Source: Lytechinus pictus
Lineage: Eukaryota
DNA length: 64,000 bases
Direction of reading: 5' to 3'
Assembly (NCBI RefSeq): GCF_037042905.1
Contig: NC_087245.1
Coordinates: forward strand, 31,250,001-31,314,000
In this document: positions 41,501-43,621 of the stretch, in pieces
Numbering within the stretch: position 1 is the stretch's first letter
Layout: the number at the start of each line of letters is the position of its first letter
Notes under the pieces: model-generated
Databases searched by the model: none
What the model saw: only the letters and a program-made list of their open reading frames with translations
What the model was told of the DNA's origin: nothing
Translations under genes and position numbers: made by a program

Positions 41501-43621
41501 ATACGGGCACTTCTGTGTCTAACCTCTTTATTGTACACCTGTCTTTCAATCTATGTCATTGTCAGTTGATAGTGTCGTCTGCCTCAATTGCCGACCACTC
41601 TCTGAACGATTCTCAGACACCCTCCTCTCACCTCGACAACCTTTCCTTCTAAAAGCATGAAACCAAATGGTTGCCTGCTGTTTGCATTTTGTCTTTAGTC
41701 TTTAGCATTTTTGTAAGTGTTTGAGATTTGTCTAATGGTAAAGCACAGTTTTGGTAAGGGTCGTACCCAGGGGGAAAATATTACAAGGAGGCTCAAGGCA
41801 ATAATACTCAATGAGCCCTGGAAAATGAGAAAAGAGCACCATTCTCTGCAATGTTATAACTTATTAATCAATGAATGTTGCTGATTTAGGCAGCCTTTTA
41901 TGAAAAGTAGCCCCCCAAAATTAAAAATTAATTTTTTGCCCGGTCGTACCAATCATTTTCCTTTTACATAATGATTGAAATGTAATTTGTTTCTGTAAGA
42001 GAAAGTAAAATGCTGATGACATTTGGTCTCCTGATAGATTGCAAATTTACTGTTCATAATATTGACATACCTTCAATTCATTATATGTTCATGCAGTACA
42101 TTCATACACATTTACATGAATTCATAGCTTGCATTCAAATTCATAGCTAGCATTCAACATTCCAGCATTTGTCCTATTGAAATTAACATGCATATGCACA
42201 TATGTATCTGCAATTTTATTCAATTTGTGCTCATAGTTGTGTCAGCTCCACATTTTGACCTGAACTGAAATTGTGCTTTACCGTTGCATTGTTCTGTTCA
42301 TATTGGTTTTTGTTCATTATTAATTTGTGGTAAACTGCCTTAAACAATTTTTTTTTTAAATCTAAAATAGATATCGAAATTCAAGAATAACAAAGTATAG
42401 GTGAAAAAGTTTGAAAGCTTGAGCAATGACACAGTGTATATTCAGTTTTATTTATTTTTTCATTCATGTAAAATATAGAACACTGAAAGCGCATTATGCA
42501 GCATTTAATTTGTTCTTTTTTGTGCAACCATTTTGTCTTGATATTGTGAACTGTGATCTTCACAGTGAATTAGTGTTCTGTTGCATGTGTTAATTGTTTG
42601 TATACTGATTTAATTGAACATGTTTTATTACTGCCTTGTTATTTGTGACTTCATAGCTATGAACTAAAATGATTAATGGAGACAGGACTAGCATGGATAA
42701 AATGACATAAGATTGTGGTATTAGATAAATGCTTCAAAGTCGTAGCATTCTTGATGATTTTATATCTTATGTATTATTAATTTTCTTGTAGTTTTTATTC
42801 TAACAAATGATTCAATATTCTAACTTAATTATTATCTTGTATAGGTCACCCTCCTCACAGACTCCTTTAGTCCTGCTAAAACGACAACCTCAAATCAAAG
42901 GTCACAACCAAGCCAGCCAGCAAGACCACCAGCCCAACCAGCCCAGCCAATCAGGTCTGCAGCAACGCAAGCCCGACCAACCCCTAGTGCAATTTCCAGT
43001 GCCCCTAGACCACAGGGAGGTATACCTACCCAACAACCGGCCAAGACCCAGCTTTCCAGGCCCCCGACCTCATCCACGCCAAGCTCCCGCCAACAGGCTC
43101 CCCCGCAGAGACCCGCCACGCCCCCAACAAAAAGAACCCCGCCCCCTTCCCAACAGGCTCCACCAACGAGGTCCGTGCCACCTCCAACGCAAGCCATGGC
43201 AAGCAAGCCCATCAGGCCTGCCGATCCCCCGAAGAGGGTACAAACCCCGCCCCAGCAGAGCCAAGCCCGCAGCACCCCGCCCGCCAAAGAATACAACCCG
43301 TTTGACGAACCCGATGAACCGGTGAAATCTACATCCCAGCAAGGGCGGAGTACAGCTCTCCCGGCTGCCATGATGAGGCGGGGACAGGCGGGCGGTAAAG
43401 GTTCGGGCCAGTCATCCCCTGCAGAGTACAATCCATTTACCCATCCAGATGGCCAACTGAGCAGGGGTTCACCATCTTCCACCGGAGGACAGCAAGCTGC
43501 TCCCCGCAGGGCACCCACCCCTCCTAATCCATTTGATGATGAACCTAGCTCGACTGGAAAGAATCCATTTGAAGATGATATGATACATGACGAGGACAAG
43601 AATAATCCTTTCTTTAACTGA
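14534..43621 (+). CDS. VPS11: Vacuolar protein sorting-associated protein 11 (HOPS/CORVET core subunit), 26 coding exons, ~1159 aa
   Basis: Exons: 14534-14548, 15594-15668, 17337-17510, 18173-18223, 19015-19184, 19969-20116, 20681-20770, 21245-21381, 22918-22979, 24850-24929, 25473-25552, 25960-26113, 26663-26809, 27201-27245, 28050-28196, 29436-29541, 31384-31517, 32498-32632, 33393-33481, 33874-33948, 34980-35157, 35796-35917, 36787-36882, 37865-37991, 39401-39466, 42845-43621. Total 3480 nt, all GT-AG, one open frame. Recognisable VPS11 motifs: [65 protein letters not shown]...[12 protein letters not shown]...[25 protein letters not shown]. Confidence 0.96.
14980..15500. repeat. (GAT)n / (ATT)n trinucleotide microsatellite tracts in VPS11 intron 1
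   Basis: Directly visible degenerate GAT and ATT/AAT runs. Confidence 0.85.
15711..16695. mobile_element. Two adjacent TTAA-flanked MITEs sharing the TTAA at 16117-16120
   Basis: First element: TTAAGGGTGATTC ... GAATCAACCTTTAA. Second: TTAAGGGGAAACCAACC ... GGCTGGGTTCCCCTTTAA. Both have internal inverted motifs, e.g. TGTGTCGTACGGGAC / GTCCCATACGACAC. Confidence 0.65.
19195..19690. repeat. (GAT/GGT)n microsatellite
   Basis: Long ATG/GTG triplet tract; source of the spurious poly-Met and poly-His ORFs. Confidence 0.9.
20360..20635. repeat. Degenerate (GAT)n microsatellite
   Basis: Directly visible. Confidence 0.8.
21405..21690. repeat. (GAAT)n / (GGAT)n tetranucleotide microsatellite
   Basis: Perfect GAAT run at ~21430-21560, with degenerate flanks. 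Confidence 0.95.
22118..22796. mobile_element. Non-autonomous TIR element with reiterated ATGCCAAAAGGG motifs
   Basis: Ends read TATTGTCGGCCTTATGCCAAAAGGGCCT ... AGGCCCTTTTGGCATGAGGCAGACGATA. The same motif recurs internally in both orientations. Confidence 0.65.
23254..23299 (-). ncRNA. Second copy of the minimal hammerhead-like motif (left palindrome arm)
   Basis: Plus strand reads CAAGCTTTCGGCCAATGGGGCCTTCATCAG (23261-23290), the exact reverse complement of the right-arm core. Confidence 0.6.
24382..24427 (+). ncRNA. Minimal type I hammerhead ribozyme-like motif (Penelope-type), sense to the VPS11 pre-mRNA
   Basis: CTGATGA (24391-24397), A, stem II GGCC/CCATT/GGCC, GAAA (24412-24415), then GCTT, giving a palindromic AGCT in place of helix III. 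Helix I pairing is weak in the canonical register. Confidence 0.6.
27520..27825. repeat. Degenerate ~45-bp minisatellite in VPS11 intron 14
   Basis: Recurring unit resembling ATGCCCTCATTGTTTCAAAGGTACCCTTTGGTGATAGTTC, about 6-7 copies. Confidence 0.7.
28050..28897 (+). repeat. Four tandem copies of VPS11 exon 15 plus donor site (period 213-214 bp)
   Basis: 147-nt exon copies at 28050-28196, 28264-28410, 28477-28623 and 28691-28837, each followed by a GT donor. A short extra TTCTATGAGGTATGAAC remnant lies at ~28881-28897. Confidence 0.95.
29833..29995. mobile_element. Short MITE (family also seen at ~35997-36221 and ~51923-52090)
   Basis: Inverted ends GGATGTTTCATAAAGCTG ... CAGCTTTATGAAACACCC. 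Confidence 0.55.
31912..32370. mobile_element. TTAA-type (Kolobok-like) MITE
   Basis: Ends read AAAGGAAAATGAAACCTTTGAAACAAG ... CTTGTTCCAAAGGTTTCATTCCCCTTTAA. Confidence 0.6.
34631..34756 (+). pseudogene. H4: Histone H4 3' fragment (residues 62-102 plus stop) in VPS11 intron 20
   Basis: Translates [41 protein letters not shown]. The 5' half and start codon are absent, no histone stem-loop is seen downstream, and it carries substitutions R67H, E74G and Y98C. Confidence 0.93.
37487..37870 (+). repeat. Six tandem 62-65-bp units, each containing the VPS11 exon 24 splice acceptor
   Basis: Unit AAAATGTTTTTGTTGTTGTTGGTGTTGTTATTATTATTATTGTTATTATTTCATTACAGTTGTTT. The AG ends fall at 37542, 37607, 37669, 37734, 37799 and 37864. 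Confidence 0.95.
38600..39360. repeat. Polypyrimidine (CCCCT/CCTT) low-complexity tract with internal duplication
   Basis: Directly visible. The block CTATCATAACCCCCTCCC..CATGATACCTGTCACTCAAT occurs at ~38938 and ~39169. Confidence 0.85.

Follow-up and report, generated by a model that had tools for sequence, protein, structure and literature searches.

The VPS11 gene of the sea urchin Lytechinus pictus, which encodes a component of the HOPS/CORVET core, ends in an exon that adds to the conserved protein a 258-residue tail, predicted to be disordered and bearing five Asn-Pro-Phe (NPF) motifs. The gene lies in the window analyzed here, a 64,000-nucleotide stretch of contig NC_087245.1 (positions 31,250,001 to 31,314,000 in assembly GCF_037042905.1), whose own coordinates we use throughout; all parts of the gene are on the plus strand. 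The tail is genuine and transcribed, with selection acting on its motifs. We assign a probability of about one half to the reading, drawn from sequence comparison, that it serves as an arm by which the HOPS/CORVET core recruits ATPases of the EHD/RME-1/Past1 type.

The gene runs from its annotated start at 14474 to the stop of the long form at 43621 and encodes 1179 amino acids. The NCBI L. pictus VPS11 protein (P0007, 1179 aa) aligns to the window exon by exon, beginning at 14474 (tblastn), and its C-terminus is identical, letter for letter, to the translated tail. Pfam matches over the propeller (PF23341, E 4e-119), clathrin repeat (PF23356, E 6e-111), RING (PF13923) and VPS11_C (PF12451, E 3e-19) uphold the name VPS11 given in a preliminary description of the window, and the sequence and an AlphaFold2 model agree on the VPS11/Pep5 domain order for the long form: beta-propeller, clathrin-repeat solenoid, RING, VPS11_C and then the tail. 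Assembly into HOPS and CORVET with VPS16, VPS18 and VPS33 is assumed from orthology. The RING is divided between the exons at 36787..36882 (first half; sequence, tblastn and Pfam) and 37865..37991 (second half with the start of VPS11_C; sequence and Pfam PF12451), and the conserved core closes (...GRGVFNK) in the exon at 39401..39466 (sequence, tblastn and an RNA joint), whose donor at 39466 serves both downstream acceptors, 41566 and 42845. The coding part of the terminal exon, 42845..43621 (translation, RNA and model), holds 258 open codons with NNPFFN* at the end, just as had been described.

The junction between 39466 and 42845, also proposed in that description, has GT after 39466 and AG before 42845 and is seen in both RNA run X20 and contig run X1. 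Among three raw RNA runs from the same species, of each of which ∼6% was read, X20 contains the joint in four reads with four different starts, and no joint reads appeared in the portions of X19 and X21. The X1 contig, taken as RNA on a software guess, includes the joint and spans 42843-44041 without any difference from the window. Cover of the terminal exon in the raw reads is thin (mean depth at most 7.5), comes from one strand and leaves one empty bin in X21. In organism B, a close relative, each of the four contig runs has the upstream exon joined at this position and extends over the stop. Read-through and mis-annotation as sources of the tail are rejected on the strength of the RNA joint and the exon cover. 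By the extent of the X1 contig, the 3′ untranslated region occupies 43622..44041, with AATAAA at 43763; repeats at 41328-41505 and 43998-44531 draw deep reads on both strands, masking the true 3′ end of the transcript.

The five NPF motifs fall at tail residues 151, 196, 228, 240 and 254. Their number, as claimed in the preliminary description, is borne out by translation, and in 200,000 composition-preserving shuffles the maximum was three (reached twice) and five never occurred, which rejects chance as the source of the motifs. Five of the seven phenylalanines in the tail lie inside NPF, and a sixth directly follows the last NPF. Three motifs are acidic, namely NPF 1 (43295..43303, NPFDE), NPF 3 (43526..43534, PNPFDDE) and NPF 4 (43562..43570, KNPFEDD), so the earlier statement that NPF is followed by acidic residues holds for three of five; it fails for NPF 2 (43430..43438, EYNPFTH), which has no counterpart at this place in Strongylocentrotus purpuratus, and for NPF 5 (43604..43612, NNPFFN*). 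The latter stands two residues before the end, and of all features of the compared tails an NPF close to the C-terminus varies least. In the last motif (43604-43618), as in those of P0011, P0017 and P0027 (several echinoderms and hemichordates), NPF is followed by Phe or Tyr, which also makes it an NPxY/F sequence of the PTB or FERM type; insects do not have this arrangement.

Upstream of the first motif, tail residues 9-150 (42869..43294) form a basic, poorly conserved spacer rich in Pro, Gln, Ser and Thr, with 19 Lys/Arg vs 3 Asp/Glu over residues 1-150. The last helix of the AlphaFold2 model, built on 81 sequences, is at residues 906-914, and nearly all of residues 920-1179 have pLDDT below 50 and no secondary structure; such values fit disorder, as a prediction, and would place the five NPF motifs in an accessible region. 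The tail matches no Pfam family, its residues 140-258 gave a best score of 0.75 in an ESM Atlas search (an uninformative bacterial hypothetical cluster), and a search with the tail among longer proteins returned three urchin VPS11 clusters only. A further suggestion, that PxxP motifs might engage SH3 proteins, is weak: class II motifs number 4 vs 1.2 expected (p 0.026, uncorrected) and class I motifs 2 vs 1.2 (p 0.34), at most slightly above chance for such a Pro-rich sequence, and the spacer is not conserved beyond urchins.

Alignment of VPS11 C-termini, a comparison advised in the preliminary description, reveals NPF motifs that persist as the spacers diverge, though the aligner favors NPF-to-NPF pairing and counts per tail are the firmer measure. 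Identity to L. pictus in core and spacer, respectively, is 0.97 and 0.71 for S. purpuratus, 0.92 and 0.43 for Diadema, 0.78 and 0.29 for Asterias, 0.72 and 0.23 for Holothuria, 0.72 and 0.29 for Ptychodera, and 0.56 and 0.21 for a locust. Between organisms A and B, the differences listed (40 of 61) include 34 inside the coding exon; they affect 31 codons, 18 of them silent and 13 residue-changing, and none of the 31 alters an NPF residue. A tandem repeat expands the NPF units in S. purpuratus and Ptychodera. The spacer has a motif of its own, E[AG][RK][LI]R, in insect and crayfish proteins (P0244, P0169, P0205 and P0317); it occurs several times in the crayfish and not in the urchin.

For flank statistics we used 209 motifs from 54 NPF-bearing tails, which were hand-picked and are related, hence not independent. 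The fraction of Asp/Glu is 0.42 at position +1 and 0.58 at both +2 and +3, vs 0.07 elsewhere in the tails, and ∼0.4 at −4 and −3; at least two acidic residues occupy +1 to +3 in 105 of the 172 full-length contexts. The last NPF lies at most four residues from the C-terminus in 50 of the 54 tails, and variant motifs are few (three DPF, two NPY, no GPF and no NPW).

The preliminary description had treated the extension as a property of "this lineage", a claim that the wider sample contradicts: many groups of invertebrate bilaterians have NPF tails, and the vertebrates and most of the molluscs sampled lack them. Genus counts across invertebrate groups reject an urchin novelty, and this distribution suggests retention of an ancestral tail in place of a new extension. 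VPS11 proteins were gathered through RING and VPS11_C searches (120 of 392 and 120 of 347 matches listed) plus cluster members, and named genera were each scored, on their best record, for a tail with at least one NPF. The sample is uneven, with no mammal, Drosophila or Caenorhabditis elegans sequence, and ten named proteins, including those of all three nematodes, the fly Condylostylus, a crayfish, a mite and Macrostomum, were picked for having NPF. NPF tails occur in 10/11 echinoderm genera, all ten with at least three NPF (the exception is an Apostichopus model that stops after 70 residues), 3/3 hemichordates, 1/1 amphioxus (Branchiostoma), 53/55 insects, 7/9 other arthropods, 4/5 other spiralians and 3/3 named nematode genera (one to four NPF), with annelids, nemerteans and myriapods among the groups represented. 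They are found in only 1/27 molluscs (a chiton), 1/6 cnidarians (Xenia) and 0/34 vertebrate genera, all non-mammalian, whose tails have 20-36 residues. The number of NPF per NPF tail varies from 1 to 8.

A less biased set comprised 150 cluster representatives, 119 of which reach the C-terminal anchor, 24 of these with NPF. In a quick tree of the representatives and 38 named proteins, all but one of the 19 insect-crustacean tips have NPF, as do 3 of 83 tips outside the clade that holds all named animals; these three (a thraustochytrid, a protein with a similar start and Mastigella) have one or two motifs each. The animal clade has support of 0.64 and includes tail-less tips. Twelve long VPS11 records scanned for fused domains contained no EH domain, and four of them had unrelated extra domains, probably through merged gene models. 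L. variegatus has two near-identical VPS11 annotations (P0005 and P0006), which reflect either duplication or the presence of a second haplotype.

To judge from its distribution and motifs, the tail probably dates back to the bilaterian ancestor and was truncated in vertebrates. One origin followed by losses is the simpler reading, and two shared motifs argue for it. The first, Y[DN]xxxNPF, is found in crinoids, insects (49/55), myriapods, crayfish, the chiton and Steinernema. The second, QRxLL-like and just past the core, is found in vertebrates (33/34), hemichordates (3/3), the nemertean Lineus and cnidarians (5/6), and in no echinoderms; hemichordates and Lineus have the NPF block after it, which makes the vertebrate end resemble what is left of a longer tail. 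Convergence on a motif preferred by a common partner could also explain the distribution, since the spacers do not align. The short tail of hagfish VPS11 (P0093) ends Gly-Asn-Pro after QRxLL, like the Xenia end without its Phe, either as a vestige or by chance.

The reading frame does not always continue into the terminal exon, since a cassette exon with a stop can be spliced in ahead of it. This exon, at 41566..41712 with AG and GT ends, has 28 codons followed by TAA at 41650-41652, and the final 28 residues of the 949-aa NCBI isoform X2 (P0008) are the translation of 41566-41649. The stop sits 60 bases before the exon's own donor, which is near the 50-55 base rule of nonsense-mediated decay, so cassette inclusion would yield either a tail-less protein or a poison exon and decay substrate. 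In run X9 of organism B, a contig of 204 bases has 174 letters of other sequence attached to 42845, and a stretch of 30 of these begins with 19 letters that occur once in the window, at 41680-41698; a 60-base contig of the same run has the direct joint. The depths are 13.9 and 20, contig depth being a poor measure. We infer that both splice forms occur in X9 and that the cassette exon is common to both species. The cassette junction is not among the joints listed for X1, X19, X20 and X21, where cover is thin, or for X5, X6 and X7, from which neither absence nor rarity follows. As for transcripts that end before the NPF region, the long form of the preliminary description is indeed spliced in RNA, and the stop-bearing form had been overlooked there. 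Crayfish isoforms X3 and X4 (P0399 and P0397) and sawfly isoform X2 (P0205) likewise lack the NPF block, as annotated.

The acidity of the motif flanks favors EHD proteins as the partner. The EH domains of the C-terminal EHD type have a more basic surface than Eps15 EH2 and prefer acidic-flanked NPF, as in their ligands MICAL-L1, rabenosyn-5 and Rab11-FIP2 (PMC13282721); with the statistics on 209 motifs, this bears out the earlier suggestion that acidic NPF flanks are a signature of EHD ligands. NPF proteins, among them rabenosyn-5 with its five NPF, help recruit EHD1 to sorting endosomes (PMC7511005). In yeast structures, the RING and long C-terminal helix of Vps11 hold Vps39 or Vps3 (PMC11187117), and the tail would therefore exit the complex at that anchoring site. 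On this scheme the ∼150 basic, Pro-rich residues could act as a flexible arm, and the distal 110 residues could let an EHD oligomer engage several NPF simultaneously, with avidity adding strength as is thought for the five NPF of rabenosyn-5. The NPF-acidic motifs would bind the EH domains of EHD1/RME-1/Past1-type ATPases and thereby tie HOPS/CORVET to endosomal recycling and fission. The tether might dock EHD at sites of endosome fusion or else capture EHD-coated carriers, and fusion and pinching would be combined, as has been proposed for the FERARI tether, which includes EHD1/RME-1 (10.1101/500082). Such a tail may have been in place in the bilaterian ancestor and been cut back in vertebrates and most molluscs. 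A more ambitious reading, which we put forward tentatively and would not ourselves bet on, is that the ancestral bilaterian core carried an EHD arm on VPS11, that the degradative tethers of most animals accordingly couple fusion to EHD-driven fission in the manner of FERARI, and that the arm can be switched off by splicing, as the urchin cassette exon and the short crayfish isoforms would exemplify; because it was lost in vertebrates as well as most molluscs, work on yeast and human cells would never have met it.

Several points weigh against EHD recruitment. Two of the five urchin motifs (NPFTH and NPFFN) are non-acidic, vertebrates and most molluscs manage without an NPF tail, and spacers that cannot be aligned between phyla leave a single origin to rest on distribution and the shared terminal motif. 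C. elegans vps-11 was in the library of a two-hybrid screen yet was not recovered with five EH baits, including RME-1, and the same screen also missed the known RME-1 partner AMPH-1 (PMC3570524). In fly nephrocytes depleted of Syx17, the clusters tethered by HOPS showed no enrichment of Past1-GFP (PMC12143387), and fly Vps11 was not found with Vps8 (PMC4935465), so if flies have a tail, its place of action would be HOPS, at a greater distance from recycling endosomes. A 2026 review of EHD proteins never mentions HOPS, CORVET or VPS11 (PMC13282721). Even in human cells, endosomal recycling is impaired when HOPS subunits, among them VPS11, are lost (PMC10916860), and a recycling phenotype alone therefore needs no tail. 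Finally, NPF readers without an EH domain exist on endosomes, WASHC5 being one (10.64898/2026.09.08.749775).

The last of these points suggests the main rival, unlikely as we judge it, in which the motifs are read by a non-EH protein such as WASHC5/strumpellin of the WASH complex, or by some groove that takes NPF together with neighboring aromatics. ENTR1 is reported to bind WASHC5 through NPF plus downstream hydrophobic anchors (10.64898/2026.09.08.749775), the failure to recover vps-11 in the worm EH screen (PMC3570524) would be as expected, and Tyr at −5 in 52 of 209 motifs, along with Y[DN]xxxNPF in 49 of 55 insect genera, crinoids and others, may mean contacts beyond an EH pocket. The acidic run at +1 to +3 is, however, the stated EHD signature (PMC13282721), and ENTR1-like downstream anchors are uncommon in the tails, where +2 to +6 are mostly Asp, Glu, Ser, Gly and Pro. 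Eps15, intersectin, REPS and synergin have tandem EH domains, and it is rather unlikely, though conceivable, that these N-terminal EH proteins are the ones that bind, with the tail lassoing new endocytic vesicles for CORVET/HOPS. Several NPF with Ser/Thr/Asn at −2/−1, and one at most four residues from the C-terminus in 50 of 54 tails, recall epsin-type ligands; set against this, the acidic flanks fit the basic EHD surface better than Eps15 EH2 (PMC13282721), and the worm two-hybrid screen with EH baits failed to recover vps-11 (PMC3570524), a result that speaks against Eps15, intersectin or REPS as the readers and does not decide about EHD.

Two other proposals concern the tail apart from tethering. 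Since it begins ∼50 residues past the RING, it might act in a function of VPS11 apart from the tether or in the control of VPS11, as by presenting EH proteins to the adjacent RING for ubiquitination, instead of coupling fusion to recycling, a role we regard as improbable. The RINGs of HOPS/CORVET subunits do act as ligases, and subunits outside the complexes may have additional roles (PMC11187117), but the structures solved show the Vps11 RING making a structural contact with Vps39 or Vps3 (PMC11187117), and the analyses made here gave no sign of a ligase role for the tail. That the tail has no specific function, being a tolerated low-complexity extension with NPF units generated by local repeats, seems very unlikely indeed. 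Tandem-repeat expansion in S. purpuratus and Ptychodera, the range of 1-8 NPF and the existence of whole tail-less groups would suit such neutrality; yet the tripeptide and its acidic context are kept across phyla while the spacers become unalignable, and 18 of the 31 codons changed between A and B are silent, with NPF residues untouched (among the 40 of 61 listed).

EHD recruitment by this tail can be compared with several known systems. VPS11/Pep5 of known structure (PDB 7ZU0 and 8QX8) has the same domain order (match E 2e-53), but yeast Pep5 stops 6 residues past the aligned core (1023 of 1029) and the sampled vertebrate proteins stop 20-36 residues past it without NPF, whereas the urchin adds 258. 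In C. elegans VPS-11 (R06F6.2), several NPF repeats were remarked in passing in 2013 (PMC3570524). The worm protein very likely bears the same tail, given that three other named nematodes have one to four NPF; in the available text of that paper it is only an unrecovered control, its conservation, position and function being undescribed (PMC3570524). Rabenosyn-5, MICAL-L1, Rab11-FIP2 and syndapin resemble the tail in having several NPF, most then acidic, on an endosomal, fusion-linked protein; they differ in that no homology to the tail was found (Pfam and protein search) and that EHD binding is demonstrated for them and predicted here. FERARI (VPS45, VIPAS39/SPE-39, rabenosyn-5, Rab11FIP5 and EHD1/RME-1) is a HOPS/CORVET-related tether proposed to combine fusion with EHD pinching, but VPS11 is no described subunit (0 occurrences in the preprint) and its authors set its EHD content apart from HOPS and CORVET (10.1101/500082). 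The urchin protein is VPS11 and none of the FERARI subunits, and we compare the working principle alone. A search of titles and abstract openings, with most subscription journals outside its coverage, found no report of a link between VPS11 and EH proteins. Apart from the passing 2013 remark on worm vps-11, that search also turned up no published account of NPF motifs on VPS11 in bilaterians at large, of their loss in vertebrates or of the splice form; the motif class and the idea of an EHD-carrying tether were already known.

Elsewhere in the window, a 214-base unit repeated 3.7 times at 28049-28840 provides four near-identical tandem copies of a VPS11 coding exon (residues 497-546), of which copies 2-4 keep the donor and have no AG at the normal acceptor position, through a real duplication or an assembly error. 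In a 65-base unit present six times at 37486-37870, the region around the acceptor of the second RING exon is repeated, creating several candidate acceptors. Identical minus-strand frames 722 bases apart (23258-23701 and 23980-24423) mark a duplicated segment in a VPS11 intron. VPS11 is followed on the plus strand by a cytochrome P450 gene (∼48100-58351; PF00067 on the exon 56656-57159), and exon-like minus-strand frames at 2295-4247, which read as coiled coil and have no Pfam match, belong to a divergent gene upstream.

Most of what is known about HOPS and CORVET comes from yeast and human cells, and VPS11 of yeast and of the sampled vertebrates has no such tail. Retention of a motif-bearing arm in worms, insects, echinoderms and amphioxus implies that the core has a partner which is invisible in yeast and human systems. 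Through the cassette exon, urchins provide a tail-less form naturally. Should EHD be that partner, the divide between degradative tethers and recycling fission would be thinner in most animals than current models hold, and part of what is seen in worm or insect vps-11 mutants may be a recycling defect that does not extend to vertebrates.

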